DNA of 64,000 nucleotides from Candidatus Woesearchaeota archaeon (GCA_018646625.1 JABGUJ010000001.1:5534-69533), one strand, 5' to 3'. Counted from the first letter of the stretch, positions 13,749-55,703 are shown. A program made the numbers and translations. Notes: generated by a model from the sequence alone, not told the origin.

Positions 13749-13823
13749 AGCGGGGTAGGGCAGCCAGGAGTGCCCGTCGGGCTCATAACCCGGAGGTCGG
13801 AGGTTCAAATCCTCTCCCCGCTA
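13749..13823 (+). tRNA. Initiator tRNA-Met (anticodon CAT)
   Basis: Cloverleaf read by hand: acceptor AGCGGGG/CCCCGCT with A1:U72, anticodon loop CTCATAA, G29-31:C39-41 in anticodon stem, T-arm GGAGG-TTCAAAT-CCTCT, discriminator A, no encoded CCA. Confidence 0.85.
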
Positions 13824-14251: not shown

Positions 14252-14449
14252 ATGAGACTAGAACAATTTCCTGAAGATCAATACTGTTCCCAAAGAGATA
14301 AATTATTAGCAATTGCAGATAGAGAAATGTACCATGGAGATATAACTCAAAGCAGAAATTACGGTGCAACTGAATCGGGAGTTCTATACTACCATGATTT
14401 GCACATTTTCAAGGCAATACCTTCTGAACTAGTTCATCTTCCACTATAG
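14252..14449 (+). CDS. Hypothetical protein; possibly the 3' remnant of a longer disrupted ORF (frame open from 13958 without an ATG/GTG/TTG start)
   Basis: First in-frame ATG at 14252 but the reading frame is open about 100 codons upstream; overlapping frame-0 mini-ORF 13875-13988. Confidence 0.25.
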   Translation: MRLEQFPEDQYCSQRDKLLAIADREMYHGDITQSRNYGATESGVLYYHDLHIFKAIPSELVHLPL

Positions 14450-16485: not shown

Positions 16486-16493
16486 GCTCCAAC

Positions 16494-18338: not shown

Positions 18339-20167
18339 ATAAGATCCATAACATCTATTGGTTTCTGAATGATTTCCGCATCATAAAGAAAATCAGCCAA
18401 TTCAACATACTTATCATGTTGCGCATCTTCAATAGGATATTGTTCCATCAAAGGCACAGCAAAGGCCACATCTCTAGACAAACCCATATATTTAATCAAA
18501 ATCTCTCTCGCCTCGTCCGGATTCTCATCAATAAAATCCTGCGCATAAACAATAGCCCCCTTAAATCTTTTAGCAACATCTTCTTTATTCTCAATAAACT
18601 TAGTAGACATCGCACCACAACCAATATATGCCGGTTGTACCGCATCAGCAAATATGTTCCAAGAAATTGCTTTTACATTGCCTTGCAACAAAGCCACAGT
18701 CACAGTTGGTTGATAACCAAACAAAGCATCAATAGCTCCAGAGTTTAATGCATTCAATTGTTGAGAAGGTACTAACTTAATTAACTCAACAGACTCAGGA
18801 TCTACTCCCCTCTTACTCAAAAAAGTTTCAAAAAACAACGAAGCCGTTGAACCAGGAAATACTCCCACCTTCTTACCTACTAAATCATTCATCTCATTAA
18901 TGCCAGAATTATTCAAAGTCAACAACGCAGAAAAATTCGCAGTACCTGATTGTTCAGTCGAAGTATATATCATCAAATTACCAGGATTTAATGCCTCTAT
19001 AGCCAAAACCGGGACAACAGAAAATTCCACCACCGCATCAATACTATCTTGGACCAATGCTTCAGCCAATAAATTAGAACTCTCAATTAATTGATCTTCC
19101 ACTTGCAAACCATTCATCTCAAAGAAACCTTTCTCCTCAGCAACAAAAAGTGGCAAAGTAGGAACAATTTTTACATAGCCCACTCTAACCTTATCAAGTT
19201 TTTTTCTAGGTAATAACAGACTATTCGCGTCTATTTTTTTTTCAATAATACCAGAATTATAAAAGAAGTCTATATTATTCTGCAACACAAAAGGATCAAT
19301 ATTCTCTGCTTGATACAACAACGGTAATTTATCAACAACATCTTTCGCCAAGCCTATGTTATTTGAAAGAATACCCCTAGCAGAATCAGGATTATTAACT
19401 AAATAATCACTAGCTTCCATCATTGCTTTCTTCAGCCTAAGTACAACATCAGGATTCATTTCATAAAACCTAGTGGATATTGCATTAACCCCAATATAAG
19501 AAGACTCAACCGCATAAGAATACACATTTTCTTCTAATACTCGAACATCATAATTATGTATCAACATTGTTTTAAGAGGATCATAAGCCAGCAAGGCATC
19601 AATCGCTCCAGAAAGAAATGCTTCCATATGCAAACTTCCTTGCATCCGTACAAAATCGATAGAACTTACATCAACCCCTTCAGACGATAGTAAATGAGCA
19701 AGAATATTGGTTGCAGTAGTACCTGGATAAACTCCAATCTGTTTACCTTCAAGATCAGATAATGATCTGATCACAGAATCATTCTTAACCACCAATGCAG
19801 TAAATCCATGCTCCCTAGTCATTGGCCTAGCAAACAACAATTTAACCATACCAGGAGAAGATGATTCACTCATCAATATTGGAATAACTGATAGTGCAGA
19901 TGCAAAATCAATCTCATCAGTAAGCAAAGAATCAAGAGCCATATTAGAACTTCCTAATAAAACAGGTTCAACCTTAAGATTATATTTTTCAAAGAAACCC
20001 AAATCTTTTGCAACAAAATAAGTTAAACTGGGAGCAATATTTTGATACCCTATTCGAACTACATCATAATCTTGCTTTTCGCTCATTACAACATTTGCAT
20101 TAGTACCACAACCCAAAAATGAGCAGGTAATCAAAACTAAAAGTATCATACATAGTATCTTATCCAT
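18323..20167 (-). CDS. Paralogous lipoprotein with two tandem NMT1/SsuA-like solute-binding domains
   Basis: Lipobox FLGCGTNA; repeats VVRIGYQNIAPSLTYFVAKDLGFFEKYNL and VRVGYVKIVPTLPLFVAEEKGFFEMNGL; identical length (614 aa) to neighbour. Confidence 0.7.
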   Translation of the reverse strand: MDKILCMILLVLITCSFLGCGTNANVVMSEKQDYDVVRIGYQNIAPSLTYFVAKDLGFFEKYNLKVEPVLLGSSNMALDSLLTDEIDFASALSVIPILMSESSSPGMVKLLFARPMTREHGFTALVVKNDSVIRSLSDLEGKQIGVYPGTTATNILAHLLSSEGVDVSSIDFVRMQGSLHMEAFLSGAIDALLAYDPLKTMLIHNYDVRVLEENVYSYAVESSYIGVNAISTRFYEMNPDVVLRLKKAMMEASDYLVNNPDSARGILSNNIGLAKDVVDKLPLLYQAENIDPFVLQNNIDFFYNSGIIEKKIDANSLLLPRKKLDKVRVGYVKIVPTLPLFVAEEKGFFEMNGLQVEDQLIESSNLLAEALVQDSIDAVVEFSVVPVLAIEALNPGNLMIYTSTEQSGTANFSALLTLNNSGINEMNDLVGKKVGVFPGSTASLFFETFLSKRGVDPESVELIKLVPSQQLNALNSGAIDALFGYQPTVTVALLQGNVKAISWNIFADAVQPAYIGCGAMSTKFIENKEDVAKRFKGAIVYAQDFIDENPDEAREILIKYMGLSRDVAFAVPLMEQYPIEDAQHDKYVELADFLYDAEIIQKPIDVMDLMWGVE

Positions 20168-20217
20168 CTTGACCTCCAGAACACCCCTACAACTCTAAAG
20201 AGACAGAAAGCGAATTA

Positions 20218-20266
20218 TATAACTTTAATCCTTATAAGTTATAACTTTCTATCAATATATAACTTT
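20218..20266. repeat. Three direct copies of TATAACTTT (20218, 20240, 20258) in the divergent promoter between the SBP gene and the AbrB-PhoU regulator
   Basis: Read directly from the sequence. Confidence 0.35.
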
Positions 20267-20307
20267 TTTAGAAACACTTAAATAAAAGCGCGAACTACCA
20301 TAATTCG

Positions 20308-21246
20308 ATGAGAAGGAAAGTTATACAGCAAAATCCCACCACATTAGTAGTCTCATTACCAGCAAAATGGGCAAAAGCAAACGAAGTAACAAAAGGCGAT
20401 GAGTTGGACATTTCGGAACAAGAAGATAAACTAATTGTAAGCATAGCAGATCAATCAAAAAGAAAAGAAAGGACCGTCACATTAAATTTTAATAAAAAAC
20501 ATTGGGAAATCCCAAATAAAAAATATAAATATGTTCAAAGAATTCTTGCAGCACCATACAAAGCAGGATATGATGAAATCATAATAAGATCCGATTGCAA
20601 AGAAGTTTTAGAATACATCGAAAAAAGAGTTGAAACGTTCATAGGAATAGAAATAATTGACCAAGGAAGAGATTATTTCAAAATAAAAAACCTGGTTTCA
20701 GGGTTAGATGAAGAGTTTGATAATGTCTTTAGAAGAACATTACTAATAACAAATCGATTTGCCACAGAATCATTGGAAATAATAAAATCAAAAGAATATG
20801 ATGATCTAAAAAATCTTCTAAGACTAGAAAAAACCCATAACAAGATAACTGATTTCTGTAAAAGACTATTGGCAGCAAAAGACTACGATTCACCAAAGAA
20901 AACAAGATACCTTTATGCACTCATTGCAGAGAATGAAAGACTTGTCGACGAGTATAAAGACATCTGCAAATACATATTGAATAGTAAAAATCCAGAAATC
21001 AGCAAGGAAATTGTTACACTTCTAGAAGATACAAACAAATTAGTAGTACAATACTCAAATTCATTCTTTAAATTTGATCTCGAAAGCATCCACACATTAA
21101 CAAAAGGCTTTTGTAAAGAAGAAGAAACTGCGCTGCAATTATTCGATAAACCATCAACAAAAGATAAGAGAATAGTACATCACATTTTAAACATATTAAC
21201 AAAGACATACGAAATGGGCGAAGCCTTTCTAGAAATGAATATCTAA
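20308..21246 (+). CDS. AbrB/SpoVT-domain plus PhoU-like domain protein (putative regulator)
   Basis: N-terminal swapped-hairpin motif TTLVVSLPAKWAKANEVTKGDELDI; C-terminal helical PhoU-like repeats. Confidence 0.5.
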   Translation: MRRKVIQQNPTTLVVSLPAKWAKANEVTKGDELDISEQEDKLIVSIADQSKRKERTVTLNFNKKHWEIPNKKYKYVQRILAAPYKAGYDEIIIRSDCKEVLEYIEKRVETFIGIEIIDQGRDYFKIKNLVSGLDEEFDNVFRRTLLITNRFATESLEIIKSKEYDDLKNLLRLEKTHNKITDFCKRLLAAKDYDSPKKTRYLYALIAENERLVDEYKDICKYILNSKNPEISKEIVTLLEDTNKLVVQYSNSFFKFDLESIHTLTKGFCKEEETALQLFDKPSTKDKRIVHHILNILTKTYEMGEAFLEMNI

Positions 21247-23399
21247 GCACATCTTAGTAAATCCGATACTTCAGACCCAACAGAACAAAGTGCCTTATCT
21301 TCTCTAAATTTATGTGCAACTCGTTCTAACAAACCCTCTGGCGCATCAACATAATCACCAGAAAGATGAGCTGCCAGAACAGATCTCGACACGCCAGCAC
21401 CTTCAACAACACCCGCAACATACTCAGCACCTTCTCTGATTCGCGCATAAAACTCTCTGCTAATTAAACCTGTTAATTGCCTTTGAGTTGCTTCGTAGTT
21501 CTCGACGTTTGAATTAAACCTTTCAAGAACATCAAACACTTTTTGCTTAACTGCCAAAACCTCATCAAGAGATGCCTCAGGCCCAAGAACAGCATAATTT
21601 ACGACAATGTCTTCCGCAATCGACATCCTTTCAGCCGTAGAATAAAACCGTTCTTTAGGCGCGGGCAATGAATATAAAATATTTGTACTTTCAACTCTAT
21701 GAGGAGTAAACAAACCCTCAACATCTTGAGTTTTCAAATCAATACCATAGTGAACCCCTAATTCAATATCTTTATTATGCCAAAAAACTCTATCCATCCA
21801 ACCAGTATTCTCAGCATACATTTCATCAAAAGCATCTTTAATCTTAATCGATAATCCCTTTGCACGATCCGAAGAAGTATTCCCTCTAGAATCTAAGAAG
21901 GCTCTAAACTCAATTTCAACACCAAACTCCGCAAACAACTCTTCAACTTCCCGCTTAGTATCTCCACCTTTTACCCAATCATCATAAACATAAACCTTCT
22001 CTCCAGGCTTGACATCACCAAACCTAGATCTAAAAGCATCTAACTGGAGCTGCTTCGCATTAGAATTCAACATAGAATAAATCCAAAAATGTCTTTCCTC
22101 CATCACATCTAAAACAGGAGCTAGCTCATCTCTCGCAACACGCATCTTCTCTTCATCACCGCTCTGCCTATACTGTTTCTCTTTTTTTCGTAAAGCAGAA
22201 ATATCTCCTAATGCTTTCCGAACAGCACCAACATCACCAGAATAACTATCTGCAAAATCATCAGTTCTAACATAAGCTTCAGTCACTTTTTTTGCAGAAG
22301 TAAATTTAAAATAATCCACACTTGCATCTAACTTAACATCTAAAGTCGCAGACATTGCTTGCATCATCTTACCAATAGGTCTTGCACCTCTATCTGCAAT
22401 GAAAACCCTATCAACACCATTCTGAATTATATCTTCCAAATGCGGAAGAACAGCAAAAGCAAGACGACGAGCATCAATGTAATGCTCTCGTTGTTGTTGT
22501 CTCTTTTGTTGAGTCGGCGCAGCCACCACAGATCTAACATTTCTTGAATAGTCGCCCAAAGTATGATAGACAAAACCAATAGGAAGACCATTCTTCTCAG
22601 AAAAATCTCGCACTAAATCTAAATCATCACTAATACGATCAAGATTATCTTGCAATCCACATAAATGTTCAGCAGGAGTACCAACCACCGTACTGTAATT
22701 ACCATCATCAGTACAATCTTCGAATTGATCAATCAAACCTTCAACATTATCACGCACTGCAACCATAAAAGCAGGAGAACCATAATCAGTAAGAAATTTA
22801 CGATCTCTATCATCAAGAAAGTTATCATACAAATCCCAGAACTCAGGTTCCACAGGAGTAAAAGAAGAAGCAGTTTGTCTTATCAGATCAGAAAAATTCT
22901 CATCAGGATCCCGAACATAACATTCTGCCAATTGTACAAAAAAAGCAGTCCGATTATAATCCATGTTGTAAAGCAAAATATCATGCACAATACCACTAGC
23001 ATTAGTAACTTCTTTTCCAGCAAGAATCTCTTCCATAGAATCACTCAAACCATAACGTCGCAAATGATCTTTATAATCAGAAGAATTACCACCACAAACA
23101 CAGTGACCACTTAAGTCATCACAACCAACATAATTATCCTCTTTAATATTCTCTTGGTCATCTGCAAAGAAGTTACCGAAAAAATAAGCAGTCGTACAAT
23201 GATCACCATCACGCTGAGCATAAACATTAGCAAGCTTTTGAAGAACTTCTATTTTATCAAGTGGAGATTCCTGAGAAATATTACGCCTCATCTCCCAGCC
23301 TGAACTGACAGGAGCACTAGGATTACATCCAAACAACATACTAGCAAGTACAGCAGTGCTAATAACTCTACCAAATCGACTGAAAGGATTTAAAGCCAT
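21243..23399 (-). CDS. Large secreted lipoprotein of unknown function (718 aa), Asp/Arg-rich
   Basis: Signal peptide with lipobox SMLFGCNPS; composition unlike the Lys-rich housekeeping proteins. Confidence 0.5.
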   Translation of the reverse strand: MALNPFSRFGRVISTAVLASMLFGCNPSAPVSSGWEMRRNISQESPLDKIEVLQKLANVYAQRDGDHCTTAYFFGNFFADDQENIKEDNYVGCDDLSGHCVCGGNSSDYKDHLRRYGLSDSMEEILAGKEVTNASGIVHDILLYNMDYNRTAFFVQLAECYVRDPDENFSDLIRQTASSFTPVEPEFWDLYDNFLDDRDRKFLTDYGSPAFMVAVRDNVEGLIDQFEDCTDDGNYSTVVGTPAEHLCGLQDNLDRISDDLDLVRDFSEKNGLPIGFVYHTLGDYSRNVRSVVAAPTQQKRQQQREHYIDARRLAFAVLPHLEDIIQNGVDRVFIADRGARPIGKMMQAMSATLDVKLDASVDYFKFTSAKKVTEAYVRTDDFADSYSGDVGAVRKALGDISALRKKEKQYRQSGDEEKMRVARDELAPVLDVMEERHFWIYSMLNSNAKQLQLDAFRSRFGDVKPGEKVYVYDDWVKGGDTKREVEELFAEFGVEIEFRAFLDSRGNTSSDRAKGLSIKIKDAFDEMYAENTGWMDRVFWHNKDIELGVHYGIDLKTQDVEGLFTPHRVESTNILYSLPAPKERFYSTAERMSIAEDIVVNYAVLGPEASLDEVLAVKQKVFDVLERFNSNVENYEATQRQLTGLISREFYARIREGAEYVAGVVEGAGVSRSVLAAHLSGDYVDAPEGLLERVAHKFREDKALCSVGSEVSDLLRCA

Positions 23400-23641
23400 T
23401 TTTTTGCGGAATAGCTAAATAGAGAGGTTCTGCGCTTTATAAAGATTTCGCAAAGACACCACTTAAGAGGGACAACGAGTTTAATTTCCATATTGAAAAT
23501 AAACACCAAATACAAAATAGAACATTATATAAAGAGTAAATTAAAGGAATAGCAGAAACAGTCACTGTATCGAGTGTAAAAACAAGACACAGTGAAAAAA
23601 CATAAAAACTAAGATAAAAAATTTTAGTGGAGTAATAAAAA

Positions 23642-23839
23642 ATGAACGGAAGAGTAAAGTTCTTCAACGAACAAAAAGGATTTGGCTTTATTGAAGCTGA
23701 AGATGGAAAAGACTACTTTGTACACCAAACTGGTATTAACGAAGGCGTTGTAATCAGAGAGAATGATAATGTTTCTTTCGAAGTTGCTGACGGCGATAGA
23801 GGCCTAAAGGCTGTAAACGTTGCTCTAGCAGAAGAATAA
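23642..23839 (+). CDS. csp: Cold-shock protein (CspA family)
   Basis: RNP1/RNP2 motifs KGFGFI and DYFVHQ in a 65-aa protein; about 240-nt untranslated region upstream. Confidence 0.88.
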   Translation: MNGRVKFFNEQKGFGFIEAEDGKDYFVHQTGINEGVVIRENDNVSFEVADGDRGLKAVNVALAEE

Positions 23840-23896: not shown

Positions 23897-25033
23897 TTAA
23901 ACAAAAACAAATTTTTCTTTTTCTACCATTTTTATTGCAAGAGGCTTAGACACATCTCCAAATTCATCGAACGTAGTCAATCCTCCGACACCCCTATAGT
24001 CAGTAACACCATATAACTCATCTCTAATACAGATAGAGTCTTGGCCACAAACTTCTAGAGCTAAAGCAATAATCATAACAGCATCATAGCTATCTGCTGC
24101 AGTTCTCTCAGGCAAATCACCATAACGAGTAACAAAGTCATCAACAAAATCACCAATGATCATATCATCACTCTCAGGATCGAATGCAGGTGCAGTGTAA
24201 AGTATACCATCAGCCGCTTCACCAGCCACATCAAGTAAATCTTGACTTTCAATAATCACAGGCGCTAAGATTTGTGATTCAATACCCAATTCTTTTGCTT
24301 GTTTAACAGCCAACTCAAGTGACAAACCAGCAAAATAAACAACATCCGAATCGGATGACTTAATCTTAATCAACTGTGTTCTAAAATCATTAACAGATTT
24401 ATCATAAGACTCCTGCACAATAACCTCACCACCCAGTTCCCTAAATCTTGTAACAAACGCATCATTGTAATCTACACCATTAGCTAAATTCAAAAACAAC
24501 GTCGACGCAGTCCTCGCACCCAACACATCATAAGCATACTCAGCCATATACTTTCCATGTACATCTCCACTTATACTGTTCCTGAAAACAAAATCTCCTG
24601 CATCACGAATTCTAGGAGCAGATGCAACCGTAGAAAAAACAACAGTTTGCGAGATCTCAGCAACTGGAGCTACAGCCATAACGTTTGATGAACTTGTAGG
24701 ACCAATAACAACAGAAACTTTGTCATTATCAATTAATTTTCTAAGTGCCAACAAAGCCCTAGTCTTATCAAACATACTATCCTCATACACAACTTCTAAT
24801 CTTTTACCGCTAATGCCGCCTTTAGAATTAATTTCTTCAACAGCTAAATCAACACCTTTTCTAACATTCTCTGCATGCCATGCCGCCTTCCCAGTAAAAG
24901 GTTGAACCGCACCGATCTTGATAACATCATCTTCAACAACTTGAGCAGTAATTTGACTTGAACCGCAACCACCCAAAATAATGATCATAAATAAAGCTAA
25001 AGCTATCTTAAATTTCATTTGTAGTACCTCCAA
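23897..25033 (-). CDS. LivJ-like (Peripla_BP_6) solute-binding lipoprotein, orphan (cassette 1)
   Basis: Lipobox ILGGCGSS; N-terminal IKIGAVQPFTGKAAWHAENVRKGVDLAVEEINSKGGISGKRLEVVYEDS typical of the Leu/Ile/Val-binding family. Confidence 0.75.
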   Translation of the reverse strand: MEVLQMKFKIALALFMIIILGGCGSSQITAQVVEDDVIKIGAVQPFTGKAAWHAENVRKGVDLAVEEINSKGGISGKRLEVVYEDSMFDKTRALLALRKLIDNDKVSVVIGPTSSSNVMAVAPVAEISQTVVFSTVASAPRIRDAGDFVFRNSISGDVHGKYMAEYAYDVLGARTASTLFLNLANGVDYNDAFVTRFRELGGEVIVQESYDKSVNDFRTQLIKIKSSDSDVVYFAGLSLELAVKQAKELGIESQILAPVIIESQDLLDVAGEAADGILYTAPAFDPESDDMIIGDFVDDFVTRYGDLPERTAADSYDAVMIIALALEVCGQDSICIRDELYGVTDYRGVGGLTTFDEFGDVSKPLAIKMVEKEKFVFV

Positions 25034-25139
25034 CAGAATGCCTAAACCCTAATAATCAAAGAGTAAAGAAACTATATAAGAATTTGTCGTAAATAAAATA
25101 TGACAACATTTAAATATCTCATAGAATACACAAATACCA

Positions 25140-25838
25140 ATGAAAGAAGCGCTAAGAGAGTATGGGCTTTCAGACAACGAAGCAAACGTATATCTAGCAG
25201 TTCTAAAGTTAGGAGAATCACCCGTAACAGATATAGCCAACAAAGCCAACACTTACAGAACCTTAACGTACGAAGTCCTAAAATCATTAGAAGACAAAGG
25301 TTTAGTCAGCTCAGTAATAAGAGATAAGAAAAAACATTTTATTGTAGCAAGCCCTGAAAAATTATTACAAGGATTAAAAGAAAAAGAAAGAAGAATTCAA
25401 GAAATCATGCCAGACCTATTATCAATTCACAAATCTGTTTCTATTAAACCGACAATGACCGTATATTCAGGTACAGAAGGAATCAAAAATATTTTCCAAG
25501 ACATTCTTAACGTTGGAGAGGATTTCATAGCCATTGCATCAGTTGAACAAGTCAGATCAAAAATTGATTTTATGTTTAAACACTTCATATTAAAAAGAGT
25601 TGAACTGAAAATGAAGGCTAAACTAATTATTGACAAAGAACCACTAACAAAAGAACTCACAGAGTACAAAGTAATGGATTTTAGTGTACCAACCCTTCTA
25701 TATGTATACGCAAATAAAGTTGCAGTAATAAATGTTGGAACTGAATTAGTAGGAATGATAATTGAAAGTGAGGATTACGCTAAAACACAAAAAATGATGT
25801 TTGATTGGATGTGGAACACAGCTAAGAGTAAGCCATAG
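25140..25838 (+). CDS. TrmB-family HTH transcriptional regulator, short form (cassette 1)
   Basis: N-terminal LREYGLSDNEANVYLAVLKLGESPVTDIANKANTYRTLTYEVLKSLEDKGLVSS matches the TrmB HTH. Confidence 0.7.
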   Translation: MKEALREYGLSDNEANVYLAVLKLGESPVTDIANKANTYRTLTYEVLKSLEDKGLVSSVIRDKKKHFIVASPEKLLQGLKEKERRIQEIMPDLLSIHKSVSIKPTMTVYSGTEGIKNIFQDILNVGEDFIAIASVEQVRSKIDFMFKHFILKRVELKMKAKLIIDKEPLTKELTEYKVMDFSVPTLLYVYANKVAVINVGTELVGMIIESEDYAKTQKMMFDWMWNTAKSKP

Positions 25839-26952
25839 GAATACTATTTCTAATAACTTTAGGAGCTAAAACTTTACCAAAACCGCCAGTAACAGAATCA
25901 TAGTCTAAAACACCAGACGCACCTTGATAATTTCTCAACATTGCAACATACGCGCCTAAACAATCACTATTGAACTTAGAATTTTCACATTTGACTAATG
26001 CATTCTTCAATATCATCAATGCATCATAGCTATCTCTATTAACAATACCACTACTACGATTATAACGAGACATAAACTCAGACTCAAACCCTTTATCAAC
26101 AATACCAGAATAAACATACAATACCCCTTCATCAGCACCAGCCGCACCTTGAATCTCGTACGGTTCCTCGACAGCCATATCAGACAACAAAGTTAAATTC
26201 AAACCCAACTCCCTCATCTGATTAAATATTAATCCGCCCCTACCATAAAGAACAAGTATTGCATCAGCACCAGATTCAGAAATCTTAGCTAACCGAGTTC
26301 TAAAATCAGAATCCGAATAATCATAACTTTCAACAACTGTCAACTCACCACCTAAATTCCTCAACGTACTACCAAAAGCCCCAATATAAGCTTGCGCCCA
26401 ATCATTGTCAATGTGAATCACACCCACTTTTCGAACACCAGACTCAAAAGCAACTTTAGCCAATTCTTCACCTTCGCGACCTATCAAAAATCTCGTACTA
26501 AAATAATATTTAGTCAACTTACCAAAATTATCCCCAGGAGTAATTAGAAAAACTTTTTTCTCATCCACCAAATTTGCCGCAGCTTTAACAGAAGAACCAC
26601 AAAATGGACCCAACAAAGCAACAACATCATCCATCTCAACTAATTTATGAACGGCATTAACAGTATTCTGAGGTCTACAACCATCATCTTCGTAAACCAA
26701 CTCAATTAATCTACCATTAACACCACCTAAAGAATTAATTTCTTCGAGAGCCATTTCAAATCCGTCCCGCATACGTTCACCATAAAACGCAATCGGACCT
26801 GCAAAAGGACCTACCACTCCAACCTTAATCGGCTCTAGCTCCACACTCTCCTCTACAACATTATTAGAACAACCTACAACAAACAAAAGCAACAAAATCA
26901 TAAAAAATGCTAGTCTCATAGTATATTCATTAACAGAAGCATATTTAAACAT
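25822..26952 (-). CDS. LivJ-like solute-binding lipoprotein, orphan (extra copy)
   Basis: Lipobox VVGCSNN; IKVGVVGPFAGPIAFYGERMRDGFEMALEEINSLGGVNGRLIELVYEDD. Confidence 0.75.
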   Translation of the reverse strand: MFKYASVNEYTMRLAFFMILLLLFVVGCSNNVVEESVELEPIKVGVVGPFAGPIAFYGERMRDGFEMALEEINSLGGVNGRLIELVYEDDGCRPQNTVNAVHKLVEMDDVVALLGPFCGSSVKAAANLVDEKKVFLITPGDNFGKLTKYYFSTRFLIGREGEELAKVAFESGVRKVGVIHIDNDWAQAYIGAFGSTLRNLGGELTVVESYDYSDSDFRTRLAKISESGADAILVLYGRGGLIFNQMRELGLNLTLLSDMAVEEPYEIQGAAGADEGVLYVYSGIVDKGFESEFMSRYNRSSGIVNRDSYDALMILKNALVKCENSKFNSDCLGAYVAMLRNYQGASGVLDYDSVTGGFGKVLAPKVIRNSIPMAYS

Positions 26953-26971
26953 AACTATAAACTAAAACAAA

Positions 26972-27622
26972 ATGACACTTATTGTAGGTATTGACGAAGC
27001 AGGACGTGGACCAGTCATCGGACCATTAGTTATTGCAGGGGTAATGATCAATGAAAAAGACGAACCAAAACTAATCAAATTAGGCGTAAAAGATTCTAAA
27101 CAACTTACGGAAAAAAGAAGAAATGAGTTATTTCAAGAGATTAAAGACTTAGGCGTAGAATATGAAATTCTAATCATACATCCAGAAGAAATTGATGAAA
27201 CTCTAAGAAGTCCATCATCTAACTTAAACTGGTTAGAAGCAGACAAATCTGTAGAAATAATAAAAAAATTAAAACCTGATGGCGTCATATTAGATTGTCC
27301 ATCAACCGTTCCAGAAAAATACAAACAATATGTTGAACAAAAACTCAAAGACAAAACGAACGTGATTGCAGAACATAAAGCAGACGATACATATCCGGTA
27401 GTCAGTGCAGCTTCTATCTTAGCAAAAGTAACAAGAGACGCAGAGATTGAAGCAATAAAAAAGAAATACGGAGACTGCGGATCAGGCTATCCTTCAGATC
27501 CTAAAACTCAAGATTTTCTTAAGAAAAATTTTAAGAAATTTCCTGAAATATTCAGACAAACTTGGGAAAGTTACAAAAATATAATAAGAAAAAAAGAACA
27601 AAAAGGTTTAGGAGATTTTTAA
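26972..27622 (+). CDS. rnhB: Ribonuclease HII
   Basis: IVGIDEAGRGPVIGPLVIAGV catalytic motif and C-terminal SAASILAK motif. Confidence 0.88.
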   Translation: MTLIVGIDEAGRGPVIGPLVIAGVMINEKDEPKLIKLGVKDSKQLTEKRRNELFQEIKDLGVEYEILIIHPEEIDETLRSPSSNLNWLEADKSVEIIKKLKPDGVILDCPSTVPEKYKQYVEQKLKDKTNVIAEHKADDTYPVVSAASILAKVTRDAEIEAIKKKYGDCGSGYPSDPKTQDFLKKNFKKFPEIFRQTWESYKNIIRKKEQKGLGDF

Positions 27623-28755
27623 GCATCTACAAACTCGCCATCCCTAAACACTTTCAAGATAAAATCGCTTTCATCTCTTATAACATCTCCATTGTGATCA
27701 AATCTAAGACGACCAGAAGAACCTTCATGATCTACCCCGTATAATCCGTTTTTTATACAGACCGGATCTTCACCACACTGCTCTAACAACCCGGCATAGA
27801 TATATACAATATCATAAGCCAAGTAAGGATGAATTGTTGGTTCCTTCCCAGCAATCTCAATATATTTCTCTCGAAAACGTTTAGTCTTAGGATTATCGCT
27901 CTCCATATCAAACTCATAAAAGGAATATATTCCTTCAGCAGCCTCTCCCGCAATCTGATAAACTTCAGGACCCCACGAAGACGGATTAATCATAAATGGA
28001 ACATCAATACCCAACTCTCTTGCTTGTTTAACTATCAGACCCCCTTCTTCTGAATGAGACACAAAAAACATAACATCAGGATCACCCGACTTTATTTTCA
28101 AAAGATAAGTTCTAAAATCATGATCTCCGGTCTCAAACTTTTCATAAGCAATAATCTCGCCGCCCAACTCTTCAAACTTCTTCACAAAAGCATCTCCTAA
28201 CCCAACACCATAATCAGAGTTCTTCACAATAACTGCAGCTTTCTTAGCATTAAGAACTGAAACCGACTTTTCAGCAATCTTAAAAGCTTCAACATCGCCA
28301 GCAACCTTGGCCCTAAAAGTAAAATCGCCAGCATATCTCAAGTGAGGAACCGCAGAACCCGGAGTAAATATAGGAATTTGTGATTGCTCAGCAAATGGCG
28401 CAATGTACAAACTATTAACAGTCACATCACTTATCACTGCACTAACACCTCTTGCGGCTAGACTTTGAAATGCTTTTATCGCTTCCTTAGGTTGAGCCAT
28501 ACTATCTTCCATAATAATCTCTAAACGTTTACCATTTATTCCACCATTAGAATTAATTTCATCTTGCGCAATCTGCACGCCTCTCCACACCCTAACACCA
28601 TAAGAATCAGAATTCGCCCCACTCATTGGCATGACCGCCCCAATAGTATAAACTTCTTCTTGCTTAACTACTTCACCAGTAACCCCACATCCAACTATAA
28701 ACATCAAAGCTAACGCTACTAACAATAATCTTAATTTCATTTTTACCTCCAACAA
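27619..28755 (-). CDS. LivJ-like solute-binding lipoprotein, orphan (cassette 2)
   Basis: Lipobox IVGCGVTG; YTIGAVMPMSGANSDSYGVRVWRGVQIAQDEINSNGGINGKRLEIIMEDS. Confidence 0.75.
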   Translation of the reverse strand: MLEVKMKLRLLLVALALMFIVGCGVTGEVVKQEEVYTIGAVMPMSGANSDSYGVRVWRGVQIAQDEINSNGGINGKRLEIIMEDSMAQPKEAIKAFQSLAARGVSAVISDVTVNSLYIAPFAEQSQIPIFTPGSAVPHLRYAGDFTFRAKVAGDVEAFKIAEKSVSVLNAKKAAVIVKNSDYGVGLGDAFVKKFEELGGEIIAYEKFETGDHDFRTYLLKIKSGDPDVMFFVSHSEEGGLIVKQARELGIDVPFMINPSSWGPEVYQIAGEAAEGIYSFYEFDMESDNPKTKRFREKYIEIAGKEPTIHPYLAYDIVYIYAGLLEQCGEDPVCIKNGLYGVDHEGSSGRLRFDHNGDVIRDESDFILKVFRDGEFVDA

Positions 28756-28868
28756 CTTAACGCCAAAACACCTACTTCACCAAGAGCAAAATAAAGATAT
28801 AAAACATCCCCCACCCCGCAGGGGGTTGAATAGAAACACTTAAATAGAATTCAAGCTATAAAACCCCT

Positions 28869-29621
28869 ATGAACACAGAATTACTAAGAGAAATTGGCCT
28901 AACAGACTCTGAAATAAAGGTATATTTAGCATTATTAGAACTAGGATCATCTACCGCGGGACCGATAATAGAAAAATCAAAAGTAACATCATCAAAGATT
29001 TATGAAATACTAGAAAGGCTGATGCAAAAAGGATTAGTTAATTTTGTTATCAAATCTGGAACTCGCTACTACGATACACAATCTCCTTCAAGACTAAAAG
29101 AATATCTACAAGAGAAAAAAAGAACAATACAAGAACAAGAAATCGAAATTGAGAAACTAATTCCGCAACTTGAAATTAAAAGAGAATTAGCGAAGAACAA
29201 GAACGAAGCTTCAATCCATAAAGGCATCAAAGCAATTAAAAATTTCTACCTAAACATATTAGATGAGCTAAATCCAGGAGATGAATATTTTGTTCTTGGT
29301 GCAAATTATGGAGATCACGCAATGGGCATAAGATCCTTTTTTCATAAATACCACCAACAAAGAGCAGATAAAAAAATCAAATTAAATATGCTAGTAAACT
29401 CAGATACAAGAGGCACACTAGTAGAAACTACCGCCCTCAACTCGGAAGTTCGTTACCTCCCCCCGCATTTAATGAGTAACATGACAACAGTATTTTACAA
29501 AAACAAAGCATTTATTTTCTTCCTAACATCAGAACCCACCGGCTTCTTAATAGAAAGCAAAGAAGTCGTTGACGGATTTAGGTCATACTATGACACTTTC
29601 AAGAGAATAGCAAAAAAATAA
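28869..29621 (+). CDS. TrmB-family HTH regulator paralogue (cassette 2)
   Basis: LLREIGLTDSEIKVYLALLELGSSTAGPIIEKSKVTSSKIYEILERLMQKGLVNF. Confidence 0.7.
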   Translation: MNTELLREIGLTDSEIKVYLALLELGSSTAGPIIEKSKVTSSKIYEILERLMQKGLVNFVIKSGTRYYDTQSPSRLKEYLQEKKRTIQEQEIEIEKLIPQLEIKRELAKNKNEASIHKGIKAIKNFYLNILDELNPGDEYFVLGANYGDHAMGIRSFFHKYHQQRADKKIKLNMLVNSDTRGTLVETTALNSEVRYLPPHLMSNMTTVFYKNKAFIFFLTSEPTGFLIESKEVVDGFRSYYDTFKRIAKK

Positions 29622-29683
29622 AATCATATAGAAATACATTTAAAGAATAGTGCCTTAAGAGTTATAAGTTAGCAGAACAAGAG

Positions 29684-31033
29684 GTGAATTTTATTAACGA
29701 CAACAATCATGCATTTTATTTAGTAATGATAGTTTCTATAGTTGCAATTGTAGGAATATTTATTATTGTTTCTAGGGGACCAAACACATTAGAGAAAGAT
29801 ATTGCTGGAGAGGCAACTAGAGCAATCACAGGAGAGATCATAAAAAAACCATTAATGACGCATGTAAATGATGCGTGGATTTACTCCAACATGGAAGTCT
29901 TAGAACTTGGGAAGACTGTCAAAATTCACAGAACAAATGTACTTTTCAAGAAAAAATTAACACCCGAGATAAAAAAAATAAGAGACGCAAAAGCAACAAG
30001 ATTTGTTAGAATACCAAAGTTCATGATCTGTCTAAACAACATATGCAATAACTATAAATTGAGCGATAAAATTGTGATTGAGGAAATAACATATACGCTA
30101 AGCAGTACAGACAACAAAATTAGATTAATCTCTAACAATATTGATGATTGGGATATTCTTCCTCAGATAGCAACACAAATATTTGAACAGACAGAAACCC
30201 ATAATATTCCCGTGATAGAACCGGCAGGCCATTTTAAGACCTATATAGAAGAGAATGTCGATCAAAGGGTCCCTAAATACTTACAAGTTGGCATAATAGT
30301 AGATGACACCGACTACACAATAACTGATGAAGAAATAGAGGACTTCATCAGTCTTATGGACAAAGAACTGTCGAAAAAAACAAACATAAATGTGAAATTA
30401 CACGGAATAAGACATACAAATTTTGGAATAACGGCAGATAATTATTATAACGAAAACAATGATAATCCACCAGATTATGTCATTATCTTTAGAAGCAATA
30501 CAATCTCATTAAGTTATGGAGGTTACGCAATAACCTCCTCTAACCTCATCGAAGAAGGATACTGTAATAATTTTGTTTCTCCTTACCAGAGTGCAAATCT
30601 TATTTGGGGTGCTGTAATTGATTGGACTCATATATATTCCGGATGTGGTTATGACTTAGAGCATTACAAAAGCACAGGAGAGTTAAATCATATAAGTAAC
30701 GTAAGTTTAGATGATGGTTCATGCAAAAACCAAGCAGGGATAGCTTGTGTATTTAACGACATTGTTGAGTACTATGCCTGCAGTAATAAGGATCCCTCCC
30801 ACCCCTATCTACAAAGCAAGATGTCTTTTTTAGCATTTGTAGCCATACATGAATTATTACACCACTTCGGCAATACCCATAATTACGATCATTTTGGAAC
30901 AGACACATGTGATGATATCATGGGAAGCGAAGATTACAAGCAAAGCTGGAATCATCTTTCGTCTTTTGGCATGTGCCCCTATACCATCGACAATCTCGCA
31001 ACAAGTTATAATTATCTGCGAATATGTAGTTAA
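29684..31033 (+). CDS. Membrane-anchored putative zinc metallopeptidase with metzincin-type HExxHxxGxxH motif
   Basis: N-terminal TM anchor; near the C-terminus HELLHHFGNTH followed by Cys/Met-containing segment (TDTCDDIMGS...MCPY); otherwise no similarity recognised. Confidence 0.4.
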   Translation: MNFINDNNHAFYLVMIVSIVAIVGIFIIVSRGPNTLEKDIAGEATRAITGEIIKKPLMTHVNDAWIYSNMEVLELGKTVKIHRTNVLFKKKLTPEIKKIRDAKATRFVRIPKFMICLNNICNNYKLSDKIVIEEITYTLSSTDNKIRLISNNIDDWDILPQIATQIFEQTETHNIPVIEPAGHFKTYIEENVDQRVPKYLQVGIIVDDTDYTITDEEIEDFISLMDKELSKKTNINVKLHGIRHTNFGITADNYYNENNDNPPDYVIIFRSNTISLSYGGYAITSSNLIEEGYCNNFVSPYQSANLIWGAVIDWTHIYSGCGYDLEHYKSTGELNHISNVSLDDGSCKNQAGIACVFNDIVEYYACSNKDPSHPYLQSKMSFLAFVAIHELLHHFGNTHNYDHFGTDTCDDIMGSEDYKQSWNHLSSFGMCPYTIDNLATSYNYLRICS

Positions 31034-31034
31034 G

Positions 31035-32198
31035 TCACTCAACCAAAACAAATTCACCATTTCTAACAGTTTTCATTTGTATTGGCCGATAAAGGCCCCA
31101 AATTCCATTCTCAAACTCCAAGTCTCCGCCAGCTCCAGAATATGATTCCATAGACGACAAGTACTCCACTAAACAGTCAGCATCACCATCACAAACTTCA
31201 AAACCTTCAAATAATAACATCAAAACATCATATCCAACAGCACCATAGTACTTATCAACTAATGCCTCACCATAATGCAATTCATACTCAGCTATAAACT
31301 CAGCACTCACAACATCTTCAGGATCAAAGTCATACATAATAGCAGTAACACCATCAGCTGCGTCACCCGCTAAAGCAACAACACTATCATAAGACACCAA
31401 CTCTTGGCCATATACAGGCAACTCAACTTCAAGCTCCTTAATTTGCTTCAACATCATTGCCGCACCAGGAATACCAATTGGTAAAATCAACATCGCTTCT
31501 GGCTCTGCATCTTTAACCTTTAGGATTTGAGTTCTCATATCTGAAGAACCAAAGTCATAAGTCTCAGCAATAATAACATCCCCACCAAGTTTCTCAAACT
31601 CTTCTGTGAAAACTTCATAATAACCAATGGGATAATCATTGTTTTCATAGATTACACCAACAGTTTTTATTTCATGAGAGCTAATCAACTTTGCAGCTTC
31701 AGTTGCAGCCAACCGTGAAGATGCAGATATTCTAAAAACATAGTCACCCGCATATGTTATCTTTGGTGATGCAGCTACAGGAGTAATATGAATTATTTTG
31801 TTTGCTTCCGCAATCGGAGCAACAGCCAATGCAACACTGCTACAAATTCCTGTAACAATTACATCAACTTTATCCACATTAACAAACTTATTTGCAATAA
31901 TTGCAGCCTCACTTGGATTACACCTGCTATCCTCAACTACAATCTCAATCTTCTTACCACCCATATTGATCTGATCTAAAGCCAACAAAAGGGATTTTTC
32001 AACAGGATAACCAACACTAGCCAACGGCCCGGTCTGAGGAACCATGAATCCAACCTTAACTACATCTTTCTCAACTTTTACAACTTCACCAGTAACTGTA
32101 CCACAACCAGTAAATACGCTAAACACTAACAATAAAGCTACCGCTAAAACAATCAGTTTATTCATTTTAAGCCTCCAGATGACCTCTTTAGAAGCCAA
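31035..32198 (-). CDS. LivJ-like solute-binding lipoprotein, orphan (cassette 3)
   Basis: Lipobox FTGCGTVTG; VKVGFMVPQTGPLASVGYPVEKSLLLALDQIN...KIEIVVEDS. Confidence 0.75.
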   Translation of the reverse strand: MASKEVIWRLKMNKLIVLAVALLLVFSVFTGCGTVTGEVVKVEKDVVKVGFMVPQTGPLASVGYPVEKSLLLALDQINMGGKKIEIVVEDSRCNPSEAAIIANKFVNVDKVDVIVTGICSSVALAVAPIAEANKIIHITPVAASPKITYAGDYVFRISASSRLAATEAAKLISSHEIKTVGVIYENNDYPIGYYEVFTEEFEKLGGDVIIAETYDFGSSDMRTQILKVKDAEPEAMLILPIGIPGAAMMLKQIKELEVELPVYGQELVSYDSVVALAGDAADGVTAIMYDFDPEDVVSAEFIAEYELHYGEALVDKYYGAVGYDVLMLLFEGFEVCDGDADCLVEYLSSMESYSGAGGDLEFENGIWGLYRPIQMKTVRNGEFVLVE

Positions 32199-32268
32199 CC
32201 TCTTTTTTGTTACTACTTAACAGATACATTAAATATATAAATACTCCCTCCCACCAAGTGAGGTGTAA

Positions 32269-33027
32269 ATGAAAAAAGAGAAACTATCTTCAACATTAGA
32301 GAATATAGGCCTCACTAAAGGCGAAATCACAATTTACTTCTCATTACTAGAATTAGGCTCAACAACTACGGGAAAGATAATAGAAAACGCACAAATATCA
32401 TCTGGCAAAATATACGAAATACTTGACAAACTGATAAACAAAGGTTTGGTGAATTACATAGTAAAAGGAAAAATAAAATATTTTAATGCAGCCACACCAG
32501 ATTCTCTTTTAGAATTTGTTGAAGAGAAAAAATCTAACCTAGAAAAGAGAGAAAAAGAAATCAGAAACATTCTTCCAGATCTAAAAGAGTTACATAAATT
32601 CACAGAAGAAGAAAGTTGCGCAGTAGTCTATAAAGGGATCAAAGGATTAAAACATGCAGCAGATCTAACATTGGAACACGCAGAACCTGGTGATGAATAC
32701 ACAGCAATGGGATTAGTGGAACACAAACCAGAAAAATTCAACCTATTCTGGAGACAGTTCCATCAAAAACGTGCAGAGAAAGGTGTAAAAACAAGACTAC
32801 TATTTGCAGAGGAAAGCGAAAGATATGCAAAACAACTAAAAAACATTCCGTTATCAGAAGTAAGAGTCTTAAAATCAGTTAGCGCATCAGCTGTAACACT
32901 TATAGGCCCACATCTGAAAATAATAGATTACGACAGTGAAACCACAATATATATCAAGAATAAATACATAGCAAAATCATTCAAAGCATTCTTTGAAAGT
33001 CTTTGGAAACTAGGAGATAAAGTATAA
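32269..33027 (+). CDS. TrmB-family HTH regulator paralogue (cassette 3)
   Basis: LENIGLTKGEITIYFSLLELGSTTTGKIIENAQISSGKIYEILDKLINKGLVNY; GAGGTG SD 5 nt before ATG. Confidence 0.7.
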   Translation: MKKEKLSSTLENIGLTKGEITIYFSLLELGSTTTGKIIENAQISSGKIYEILDKLINKGLVNYIVKGKIKYFNAATPDSLLEFVEEKKSNLEKREKEIRNILPDLKELHKFTEEESCAVVYKGIKGLKHAADLTLEHAEPGDEYTAMGLVEHKPEKFNLFWRQFHQKRAEKGVKTRLLFAEESERYAKQLKNIPLSEVRVLKSVSASAVTLIGPHLKIIDYDSETTIYIKNKYIAKSFKAFFESLWKLGDKV

Positions 33028-33851
33028 TGACCCACATCAACGTCGATAAAAAACAACTAGACAAATTAAGAGAGCAAGGGTTCTTCGATATAGAACTAAA
33101 AACAGAATATGAAACACGAAGAATGCAAAGACTTCAACCCAAAACATCATTAATTCTCTACAATTCAAAAAAACTAGTAATCCAAGCAAGTGATGAAATC
33201 AAAAAACAAGTTGAACACACACTTAAAGACCTAGCAATTGGTAAGAAGTTAACAAAACAAGAAGTACAAAAGATCATCCTCACAGGCACCACCATTGGTT
33301 CGGATGAAACTCTAAAAGGCGATACATTTGGAGGGTTAGTTGTCGCAGCCGTAAGGGTAGATGACAAAACAAGAGAATCATTAGAATTACTAGGAGTACA
33401 AGATTCAAAAAAAATCAAAGATGAAAAGATTGCAGGATTCTCAGAAGAAATAAAACGAATAGTAGGGAAAGAAAACTACGCAATAAAAAACGTCAAACCA
33501 AAAGAATACAACAAACATGATTCACAAGATCTCCTTAACGCACTCCACACTCAAGTCGCATTAGAACTTGGTGAAGGAACTCACATAGTAGATCAATATC
33601 CAGGATGTAAAGTGGGGGATATCAAAGAATTCAAAGCAGAATCAAAATACCCCAGCGTTGCAGCCGCATCAATCATTGCAAGAGACGCAGCGTTAAAACA
33701 ATTAGGAACATTAAGCAACGAACTAGGCATAGATATTCCAAAAGGTTCAACACATGTTAAAGAAGCATTAGAATATCTAAAGAGGTCAAAGAGAAACCCT
33801 GAAGAGTTCGTAAAGATGCACTTCAGAAATGTTAAAGAAATATTCAGCTAA
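33027..33851 (+). CDS. rnhC: RNase HIII-like ribonuclease (RNase HII family with about 95-aa N-terminal extension)
   Basis: GSDETLKGDTFGGLVVAAV resembles the RNase HIII GSDE-GKGD catalytic motif; C-terminal KYPSVAAASIIAR matches the RNase HII-family SAASI motif; start overlaps the TrmB stop by 1 nt. Confidence 0.55.
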   Translation: MTHINVDKKQLDKLREQGFFDIELKTEYETRRMQRLQPKTSLILYNSKKLVIQASDEIKKQVEHTLKDLAIGKKLTKQEVQKIILTGTTIGSDETLKGDTFGGLVVAAVRVDDKTRESLELLGVQDSKKIKDEKIAGFSEEIKRIVGKENYAIKNVKPKEYNKHDSQDLLNALHTQVALELGEGTHIVDQYPGCKVGDIKEFKAESKYPSVAAASIIARDAALKQLGTLSNELGIDIPKGSTHVKEALEYLKRSKRNPEEFVKMHFRNVKEIFS

Positions 33852-53735: not shown

Positions 53736-54860
53736 CTATTCAACAACCACAAAACCGTTCTCCGTTATTTGTTTAACAAAAACTTCTCTTTCTGCCACTT
53801 GTTCTTCTGTAAATGAGAACACACCACTCGCCCCGTTATAATCAAACACATTTCGACTTTCTGAAACCATACAATCAACACTGTCACAATTACTACCAAT
53901 TCCGGCCATTAACATAATTGCATCATAAGCAAACGCGGCGTTCATCTCAGGCTCTTCGCCGTATTTCACCTCATACCTGACCGCAAAATCACTTTCATCG
54001 ACCCTAAACGGATAAGTATATGTAACCCCATATGCGCTTTTACCAACAGTATTAACTAACAATTTTGTTTGCGATAACCAAGGACCAATAAATTTAACAT
54101 CCACATCATATTCGCCAGCCTGTTTTAACAGATTTGCAAAATGAGGAGGATTAAATGAAGTAAAGATTGCCTCAGTTCTATGTTCTTTTGCTTTCAACAA
54201 AGCCGTTCTCAAATCAGCAGATTCAAATTTATCAACAGATTCAATAATTGTTATTTCACCACCATTTTGTTCAAAAGCACGTTGAAAATGTTCTCTATAA
54301 CTTTGTCCGAAAAAATCATGTTGATGAAAAATCGCAACCTTAGTTACGCCATTATCAATAACGTGCTCCGCAAGTTTATCCATTTCATTCGATATAGCAG
54401 GAGGCATGTTAAACAAATGCGGGTGTTTGCCAATCAAAGGATCGGTTCTTACCGAAATACTATAAGTTAAAGCTTTTCCTTCAGTTATAGGTGCAACAGC
54501 AGGAGTTACTGCGCCACAATATACAATAATCTTGTCCAAACCATCAACATCCAAAAGCTTACTAACTGTTTTAGTACCTTCAGTTGGACTGCACTTATCA
54601 TCTTCAACAATAAGTCGTACCAGCCTATTATTAATTCCACCTGCTCGATTTATATCATCTACAGCCATCTGCGCCCCTTGTAAAGCCCACTCACCATACA
54701 GAGCAACAGGACCCGTTAAAGGTAAACTGAACCCAATCTCAATATCCTCATAAACGCTCTTACCAGTTATGGAACTAGACCCACAACCCATGATTAATAC
54801 TACCACTATCAATATCATAGCCAATTTCACTCTAACCACCAAGTCAAAAGAAAGCAACAA
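53736..54860 (-). CDS. LivJ-like solute-binding lipoprotein, orphan (cassette 4)
   Basis: Lipobox IMGCGSSS; IEIGFSLPLTGPVALYGEWALQGAQMAVDDINRAGGINNRLVRLIVEDD. Confidence 0.75.
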   Translation of the reverse strand: MLLSFDLVVRVKLAMILIVVVLIMGCGSSSITGKSVYEDIEIGFSLPLTGPVALYGEWALQGAQMAVDDINRAGGINNRLVRLIVEDDKCSPTEGTKTVSKLLDVDGLDKIIVYCGAVTPAVAPITEGKALTYSISVRTDPLIGKHPHLFNMPPAISNEMDKLAEHVIDNGVTKVAIFHQHDFFGQSYREHFQRAFEQNGGEITIIESVDKFESADLRTALLKAKEHRTEAIFTSFNPPHFANLLKQAGEYDVDVKFIGPWLSQTKLLVNTVGKSAYGVTYTYPFRVDESDFAVRYEVKYGEEPEMNAAFAYDAIMLMAGIGSNCDSVDCMVSESRNVFDYNGASGVFSFTEEQVAEREVFVKQITENGFVVVE

Positions 54861-54929: not shown

Positions 54930-55703
54930 ATGAACACAAAAATCTTAGAAAAAGCAGGCTTAACAAATAACGAAATAAAAGTTTATCTTGCTCTTTTATC
55001 TCTTGGATCAGTAAGCGCGGGAGAAATAATAAAAAAATCAGAATTACACAGAGCAGCAGTTTATGACACCCTAGAAAGACTCATGGACAAAGGTCTTGTT
55101 TCTTATGTAATCAAAGCAAACAGAAAATATTTTGAAGCCGCAATGGCAAAAAACTTAGTAGAAATAATAGAAAAAAAAGAAAAAAAAATCAAAAAAGAAA
55201 AACAAGAACTACTAAAAATCATCCCGGACTTAGAAGCAAAAAGAAAACTAGGTAAAGAAGCTCAAGAAGTTACTTTGTTTAAAGGAAATAAAGGATTAAA
55301 ATCAATATTTCAAGATTGGTTAGAAGACGATAAAGAAAATCTAGTTATTGGTGCATTCGCCGAAGAAGCAGAGTCGCTTCAATACCATATGAAATACTCT
55401 CTACCAAGCTTTCACAAACGCAGAGAAAGAAAGAAACAAGTTATGAAGTTTATTTTCACTGAGAAATCCATTGCAAGAGCCAAACAATTAAGCAAATACA
55501 AATACACTCCAATAAGAATCCTAAAAGCACCCTTCGCTTCTCCTACATCAATACAAATTTACGGAGAGAAAGTAGCGATACTATTATGGTCTTCAGATCC
55601 AATAGGCATAGTTATGAGAAGCAAAGAAATCTCAAACGCATACAGAGAATACTTCAAAGTGTTATGGAACATGTCCGTTGATCTAAAAGAATATATGAAA
55701 TAA
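54930..55703 (+). CDS. TrmB-family HTH regulator paralogue (cassette 4)
   Basis: ILEKAGLTNNEIKVYLALLSLGSVSAGEIIKKSELHRAAVYDTLERLMDKGLVSY. Confidence 0.7.
   Translation: MNTKILEKAGLTNNEIKVYLALLSLGSVSAGEIIKKSELHRAAVYDTLERLMDKGLVSYVIKANRKYFEAAMAKNLVEIIEKKEKKIKKEKQELLKIIPDLEAKRKLGKEAQEVTLFKGNKGLKSIFQDWLEDDKENLVIGAFAEEAESLQYHMKYSLPSFHKRRERKKQVMKFIFTEKSIARAKQLSKYKYTPIRILKAPFASPTSIQIYGEKVAILLWSSDPIGIVMRSKEISNAYREYFKVLWNMSVDLKEYMK

Follow-up and report, generated by a model that had tools for sequence, protein, structure and literature searches.

The 64,000-nt stretch of DNA from Candidatus Woesearchaeota archaeon (GCA_018646625.1, JABGUJ010000001.1:5534-69533; the window in the following, with positions counted from its first letter) raises the question of what five paralogous LivJ-like solute-binding proteins do, four of them encoded head to head with a TrmB-type regulator, in a region that encodes no matching translocator. 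A preliminary description, made from the sequence alone, had regarded the proteins as surface receptors, sensors or scavenging proteins rather than as subunits of a transporter. Our analysis favors another answer, for which we estimate a probability of roughly two-thirds: the cassettes are modules of receptor and regulator that are specific for their substrates and serve a Liv-type (HAAT) ATP-binding cassette (ABC) importer, the translocator genes of which are not linked to them.

Five open reading frames (ORFs) on the minus strand matched the Pfam family Peripla_BP_6 (PF13458) over nearly the whole profile, with E-values of about 8.8e-44 to 2.6e-56. They encode the solute-binding proteins (SBPs) SBP1 (23897..25018, 373 aa, E 2.6e-56), SBP2 (25822..26952, E 8.8e-44), SBP3 (27619..28740, E 2.9e-49), SBP4 (31035..32165, E 6.5e-50) and SBP5 (53736..54860, E 1.3e-45). 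The start of SBP5 is uncertain (54818-54860), and public gene calls give this protein a length of 351 or 360 aa. Pairwise identity among the binding proteins is 29%–40%. All five have a hydrophobic signal sequence with a lipobox-like [LVIF]-x-G-C at its end (LGGC in SBP1, VVGC in SBP2), and their C-terminal lobe contains two invariant cysteines. An AlphaFold2 (AF2) model of SBP1, with a predicted local distance difference test score (pLDDT) of 91, reached template modeling (TM) scores of 0.80–0.84 to the structures 3TD9, 4GNR and 3HUT; LivK of Thermotoga maritima (3TD9) was the best match, and LivJ of Streptococcus pneumoniae (4GNR) was among the best ones after it. As judged from this model, the binding proteins carry the type I two-lobed periplasmic-binding-protein fold. 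One source names a homologue "penicillin-binding protein activator", and there are weak Pfam matches to LppC. We rejected this label, as the matches are below threshold and reflect the common type I binding-protein fold.

The five proteins are not equivalents of LivJ, since their scores for the LivJ/LivK model NF011933 (89–122 bits) stay below its cut-off of 477 and the residues expected to contact the ligand have changed. At the positions of LivJ Y18, S79, T102, Y202 and E226, which we take from the literature on LivJ/LivK structures to be the ligand contacts, the aligned residues differ in every paralogue (H/S/S/L/V, Y/G/N/-/M, Y/T/A/H/P, V/S/A/G/E and Y/G/T/N/W), and none of the five binding proteins has kept all four of S79, T102, Y202 and E226. 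Conservation of the ligand pocket, proposed as a check in the preliminary description, was thus seen neither with LivJ nor among the paralogues. The best solved relative of SBP4 is an aromatic-acid binder of Rhodopseudomonas palustris (4EY3) rather than LivJ, and the nearest solved relatives of SBP1, SBP2, SBP3 and SBP5 are amino-acid binders. Because the contact residues and the best solved relatives differ, the paralogues look substrate-specific, and the alignments suggest that each of the five probably has a ligand of its own, which need not be an amino acid. The HAAT binders of R. palustris (4EY3, 4EVQ) are comparable in that they, too, are numerous paralogues with the same fold, pockets that have diversified and ligands other than amino acids. 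Unlike the proteins of the window, they are periplasmic, belong to a proteobacterium with a large genome and have neither a TrmB-type partner nor a cassette array.

Four ORFs on the plus strand matched the TrmB winged helix (PF01978) above the gathering score, with E-values of 1.3e-13 to 1.7e-17. TrmB1 (25140..25838, 232 aa, E 3e-15) faces SBP1, TrmB2 (28869..29621, 250 aa, E 1.7e-17) faces SBP3, TrmB3 (32269..33027, 252 aa, E 1.3e-13) faces SBP4, and TrmB4 (54930..55703, 257 aa, E 6.9e-17) faces SBP5; SBP2, the fifth paralogue, has no TrmB partner and faces the gene for RNase HII. The regulators are 28%–31% identical to each other. Pfam matches, identities and lipoboxes confirmed the set as first described, that is, five LivJ-type lipoproteins, four of which face a TrmB-family regulator of about 250 aa. 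The concern that these resemblances might be spurious was removed by Pfam, AF2 and Foldseek, since they hold at the level of both profile and fold.

The presence of TrmB-type regulators beside binding proteins that are not of the sugar type had been considered unusual on the understanding that TrmB means sugar. This argument does not apply to the regulators of the window. The criterion for a sugar-sensing TrmB or TrmBL1 is a C-terminal sugar-binding domain (PF11495) in a protein of about 340 aa in total, whereas the regulators found here comprise 232–257 aa and none of the four matched PF11495 at an E-value of 0.01 or better. The models for sugar-sensing TrmB/TrmBL1 (NF040851, NF047390) aligned only with residues ~1–100 and gave 29–39 bits versus cut-offs of 500–650. 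A profile of the four paralogues matched TrmBL2 (5BPD/5BOX) over the full length (E 1e-8) and TrmB in the winged helix only. The AF2 model of TrmB2 (pLDDT 91) consists of the winged helix, a 34-residue helix (75–108) and an alpha/beta C-terminal domain similar to phospholipase D (PLD). Foldseek listed TrmBL2 chains first for this model (E 2e-14) and TrmB 3QPH next (E 1e-9), and the C-terminal domain also matched proteins with a phospholipase-D fold. The regulators, therefore, have the architecture of TrmBL2 and lack the sugar-binding domain of TrmB.

TrmBL2 is a single-copy protein in its hosts, and the binding protein of the trehalose/maltose system controlled by TrmB is of the sugar type. 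With TrmBL2 of Thermococcus/Pyrococcus (5BPD, 5BQT), the regulators of the window share the length (~260 aa for TrmBL2) and the order of winged helix, coiled-coil helix and PLD-like domain. They differ from it in sequence (18%–20% identity) and in setting, as TrmBL2 is an archaeal chromatin protein according to the PDB entry title, whereas here four divergent paralogues lie beside binding-protein genes. The TrmB/trehalose-maltose ABC system of Thermococcales is similar in that a winged-helix regulator of the TrmB family, a presumed repressor acting from a shared promoter, adjoins the gene for an ABC binding protein. It differs in that the window regulators are without the C-terminal sugar-binding domain, the binding proteins are LivJ-type (Peripla_BP_6) and the regulator is repeated with each cassette. 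About 560 homologues were found, with Pacearchaeota, Nanoarchaeota or Woesearchaeota as source names. Because the family is without the sugar domain and the closest homologues of TrmB2 stand in unrelated contexts, we consider it a general type of local regulator in DPANN archaea that was recruited repeatedly.

Start codons were taken from public gene calls of the same organism, which place the starts of SBP1, SBP3 and SBP4 at the internal ATGs 25018, 28740 and 32165. With these starts, the divergent intergenic regions measure ~100–130 bp. The preliminary description had used the longest ORFs starting with TTG; the divergent promoter regions that it proposed are present, but its length of 70–110 bp was not borne out. 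Every intergenic region contains two back-to-back A/T-rich TATA-like boxes, one ~25–30 nt upstream of the regulator ATG and the other ~50–60 nt upstream of the binding-protein ATG. GGAGG precedes the binding-protein ATG in cassettes 1–3. In the promoter region of cassette 1 (25019..25139), the TATA-like boxes lie at 25070-25080 (SBP1) and 25109-25116 (TrmB1), and between them a TTGTC-N13-GACAA inverted repeat (25084-25106) is a candidate operator. A 40-nt block with the SBP1 box and the inverted repeat is conserved in a relative (contig L092), although the flanking genes are only ~70% identical. Cassette 4 (TrmB4/SBP5) has a direct repeat, ACGACA-tt-ACGACA, between its two TATA-like boxes as a candidate site.

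A Liv-type permease or ATPase was found neither by Pfam scans of ~50 ORFs of the window nor by phmmer when all six-frame ORFs were searched with E. coli LivHMGF, and the gene tables of the 10-kb flanks on both sides contain none. When LivH/M/G/F of DPANN archaea were compared with the window and its flanks by tblastn, the only ATPase matches were SMC and the ATPase of an NMT1-type ABC system (14434-20167). This system comprises the only ABC membrane and ATPase genes of the window according to Pfam. These results agree with the earlier statement that the binding proteins are not accompanied by Liv-type translocator genes and that the NMT1-type system provides the sole ABC membrane components. 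The conclusion drawn from it, namely that orphan binding proteins are not part of a transporter, is not supported: the cassettes of relatives sit among LivHMGF genes, and it is ordinary for a binding-protein gene to be unlinked from its translocator, as livJ of E. coli is.

The evidence from relatives came from a genome scan with the binding-protein alignment, which used one genome per species and yielded 78 loci; the source species was not among them. Annotation of the loci used phmmer, the probes being E. coli LivHMGF/JK and the proteins of the window. A binding-protein gene head to head with a TrmB gene was present in 16 of the 78 loci, with 46 such pairs in total. The pair-bearing loci were DPANN or unclassified archaeal (9/22), from bacteria of the Candidate Phyla Radiation (CPR; 3/13), from unnamed bacteria (3/5) or Methanosarcinales-type (1/6), while no pair was seen in the 32 other bacterial loci. 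Within the retrieved stretch, LivH together with LivM was present in 10 of the 16 pair-bearing loci. LivH/M or a Liv-type ATPase was present in 13, the remaining three being short or cut contigs. In one locus (L016), the gene order is LivF, three TrmB/SBP cassettes, LivH, LivM, one SBP/TrmB cassette and LivG, and the same layout was found in Iainarchaeum (L063) and in the CPR bacterium Wolfebacteria (L082). The closest homologue of SBP1 in the genome collection (L015, 48% identical) is encoded immediately upstream of LivH-LivM-LivG-LivF. In an independent set of metagenome loci anchored on LivH, 8 of the 38 loci of at least 10 kb contained pairs.

We concluded that the cassette recurs as a part of Liv-type importer loci of archaea and bacteria with small genomes and is not unique to the window. 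In relatives, homologous cassettes mostly stand beside Liv translocator genes. The binding proteins of the window themselves look like transporter subunits, because the nearest homologue of SBP1 precedes LivHMGF and the SBP1 model has TM scores of ~0.8 to ABC binders. The mean identity of LivH is 50% between DPANN and CPR and 51% within DPANN, compared with 41% to other bacteria. By sequence comparison, this suggests that LivH of DPANN and CPR forms one shared clade and that the whole importer locus was transferred across domains. Fused double or longer Peripla_BP_6 proteins of 713 aa and more, and tandem arrays of as many as eight binding-protein genes with no regulators, were also observed in other DPANN contigs (L114 5723-7864 and L116 4771-6915, as well as L029, L049, L051 and L067).

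For the organism under study, we consider it probable that the translocator is encoded elsewhere in the genome, unlinked to the cassettes, and improbable that it was truly lost in this lineage. In E. coli, livJ is located apart from livKHMGF, and a complete livKHMGF set was reported for one Woesearchaeota metagenome-assembled genome (PMC11606122). A candidate locus was found on the 43 kb contig L114 (Ga0233431_1001340), which encodes a fused double Peripla_BP_6 protein, LivH, LivM, LivG and LivF. It comes from a sister sample, belonging to the same sample series as Ga0233437, which holds a contig of our organism. The contig is archaeal, as a replication-factor-C-type ATPase is present, and its MazE/AbrB-like protein is 32% identical to a 312-aa protein of the window (orf312). 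The tetranucleotide correlation of L114 with five independent fragments of the source genome was 0.948–0.968, compared with 0.950–0.984 within the source and 0.85–0.94 for eight other DPANN loci. L114 is, therefore, a candidate, although unproven, translocator locus of this organism or a close relative.

In this reading, each cassette combines an extracellular binding protein, anchored by a lipid, with a local regulator that has the TrmBL2 architecture and is transcribed in the opposite direction. Several receptors with different pockets would feed one LivH/LivM/LivG/LivF translocator, the genes of which no longer adjoin the cassettes in this lineage of Woesearchaeota and probably lie elsewhere in the genome. 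A dimeric TrmBL2-like protein would most likely bind between the two promoters and control the binding-protein gene as well as its own gene, and its release would probably be triggered by a ligand.

The use of several binding proteins per translocator is established in E. coli, in which LivJ and LivK share LivHMGF. The E. coli system also resembles the window in the type I two-lobed fold of its binding proteins and in the unlinked position of livJ, and LivH/M/G/F homologues adjoin the cassettes of relatives. There are clear differences as well. The window proteins are lipid-anchored, whereas those of E. coli are periplasmic, and they do not conserve the residues for amino-acid contact and score below the LivJ/K cut-off. 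Four of the five binding proteins have a TrmB-type regulator instead of control by Lrp, and a translocator was not found near the window genes.

The array is not constant across strains. Between SMC and the cold-shock gene, the relative L092 has the same gene order as the window, apart from an extra TrmB/SBP cassette that takes the place of a 449-aa protein with a HELLH motif. DNA identity to L092 is 100% for TrmB3, 89%–95% for SBP4, SBP3 (93.5%), TrmB2, RNase HII and SBP2, and ~70% for SBP1 and TrmB1. This mosaic of identities along the array points to recombination, and we regard the array as a strain-variable region in which cassettes are gained, lost and recombined. The cassette genes are intact in several strains. 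Synonymous differences to L092 exceed non-synonymous ones in TrmB2 (57/10), SBP3 (43/26) and RNase HII (59/7), indicating purifying selection that acts on the binding protein less strictly than on the other genes.

Several findings weigh against an importer with unlinked translocator genes and dedicated local regulators. The 84 kb around the cassettes contain no Liv permease or ATPase and no remnant of one, while most relatives have these genes within 10 kb. A LivH profile made from 12 DPANN sequences and run against a collection of 5.8 billion proteins gave no protein of this organism among the best 120 of 2292 matches; as these 120 lie within 10 bits of each other, the search is uninformative rather than negative. 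L114 is tied to the source genome only by composition and sample series and has no sequence overlap with known contigs. An operator motif common to all four intergenic regions was not found, and candidates were seen in cassettes 1 and 4 only; with a separate site for each paralogue, a common motif would indeed not be expected. Across 48 cassettes, the similarity of the binding proteins was only weakly, though significantly, correlated with that of their partner regulators (Spearman 0.25, confounded by the relatedness of the organisms). The four closest homologues of TrmB2 that were looked up in other DPANN archaea are not beside Peripla_BP_6 genes, so adjacency to binding proteins is no fixed property of this regulator subfamily.

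The lack of a translocator in these 84 kb is what one would expect of true orphans, that is, if the Liv translocator was lost in this marine lineage and the lipid-anchored binding proteins, each still under its TrmBL2-like regulator, serve no translocator but act as surface receptors, scavengers or host-contact proteins, or capture ligands at the interface with a host, to give examples. The cassettes are interleaved with housekeeping rather than transporter genes, in L092 too, the genes are nevertheless under purifying selection, and the pockets are now far removed from the consensus for amino-acid binding, all of which would fit this explanation. We still consider it unlikely. The 84 kb are a small part of the genome, and for this organism contigs of 672 kb exist: the SBP1 protein is also encoded on many public contigs, the longest of 672,215 bp, and in the assemblies GCA_018658435.1 and GCA_018658585.1. 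Unlinked binding-protein genes such as livJ of E. coli are common, and relatives with enough flanking sequence mostly keep LivHMGF beside the cassettes. A LivHMGF contig of matching composition is available from the sister sample (the candidate L114), and no signaling partner such as a kinase or chemoreceptor is encoded nearby.

The isolated position of the closest TrmB2 homologues in other DPANN genomes and the weak correlation across cassettes would also be compatible with TrmB-like proteins that are not dedicated regulators but general DNA-binding or chromatin proteins of the TrmBL2 type, co-duplicated with the binding-protein genes; a chromatin protein, TrmBL2, is indeed the best match by structure and profile. 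This seems quite improbable to us, as the head-to-head pair with a common promoter region occurs 46 times, in 16 loci and two domains, and in none of the 32 ordinary bacterial loci. The presence of four paralogues of 28%–31% identity in one small genome fits distinct specificities better than a bulk chromatin role, and the inverted repeat between the TATA-like boxes of cassette 1 is conserved. That four paralogues occur, each within a transporter cassette, speaks for local roles rather than a global chromatin function. Delivery to the BPD_transp_1/ABC_tran translocator of the window (14434-15989), the only translocator within the 84 kb, was rejected as very unlikely, since this NMT1-type system has two double-domain NMT1-type binding proteins of its own, its permease is of another family than BPD_transp_2 (LivH/M), with which Peripla_BP_6 proteins pair, and the relative in which the cassettes are kept lacks the NMT1 block altogether.

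The window is AT-rich, with a G+C content of ~35%, and its gene content is of the DPANN type (HerA/Mre11-type genes, a YGR210-like GTPase, SMC, and a DnaK/DnaJ/GrpE set). Inside the array, a canonical RNase HII (26972-27622) faces SBP2, and TrmB3 is followed by an RNase HIII-like protein of 274 aa that is extended at its N terminus (33027-33851) and scored 106 bits with TIGR00716, under the cut-off of 161. The 449-aa protein that is replaced in L092 (29684..31033, plus strand) is a membrane-anchored bystander with a single N-terminal hydrophobic segment, many cysteines and the C-terminal HELLH at residue 389; a Pfam scan gave no significant match for it. Directly downstream of SBP1 and convergent to it lies a gene for a 65-aa cold-shock-domain protein (23642-23839), the position of which is kept in the relative.

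Beyond the cold-shock gene, a block at ~13300-23400 contains tRNA-Met, the two NMT1-type binding proteins, the ABC ATPase and permease (the BPD_transp_1/ABC_tran pair), the 312-aa MazE/AbrB-like protein and a 718-aa lipoprotein. The block is missing in the relative, in which the cold-shock gene is followed by two small unannotated ORFs and then by RDD/S49/NUDIX genes; it looks like an insertion or deletion beside a tRNA gene. The 718-aa protein (orf718, 21243-23399) has a lipobox with the sequence MLFGCN. About 3 kb to the left of window position 1, the same organism encodes a 154-aa Peptidase_A8, a lipoprotein signal peptidase II of the bacterial type (L096 13887-14351), which fits the many lipobox proteins of this region, namely the five binding proteins and orf718.

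Proteins of ~310–330 aa with an N-terminal MazE/AbrB-type domain are encoded divergently from binding-protein genes at 20308-21246 of the window (beside NMT1-type genes) and at 4608-5552 of L114 (beside a Peripla_BP_6-type gene), and a similar protein is encoded near a TrmB homologue in L006 (11594-12583). These MazE/AbrB-domain proteins may represent a second family of DPANN regulators that act locally on transporter genes.

The DPANN archaea and CPR bacteria take up most of their building blocks from outside, and little is known about how they choose and regulate these imports. A cassette of TrmB with binding proteins for branched-chain amino acids, or with those of DPANN or CPR, was not found in the literature covered by our limited search, in line with the initial impression that no system of this architecture had been described. 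The proposed combination of a multi-receptor HAAT importer with a local repressor in the style of TrmB, without the sugar domain and repeated cassette by cassette, was not described in the literature searched. Tests of ligand and DNA binding are feasible, as the binding proteins and regulators are all soluble proteins of small size that can be expressed easily. With a receptor-plus-regulator cassette that is repeated, occurs in both domains and differs from strain to strain, a very small genome would have a simple means of broadening or altering the set of substrates taken up by one importer, and the cassette gives a likely local regulatory role to the large uncharacterized family of TrmBL2-like proteins.

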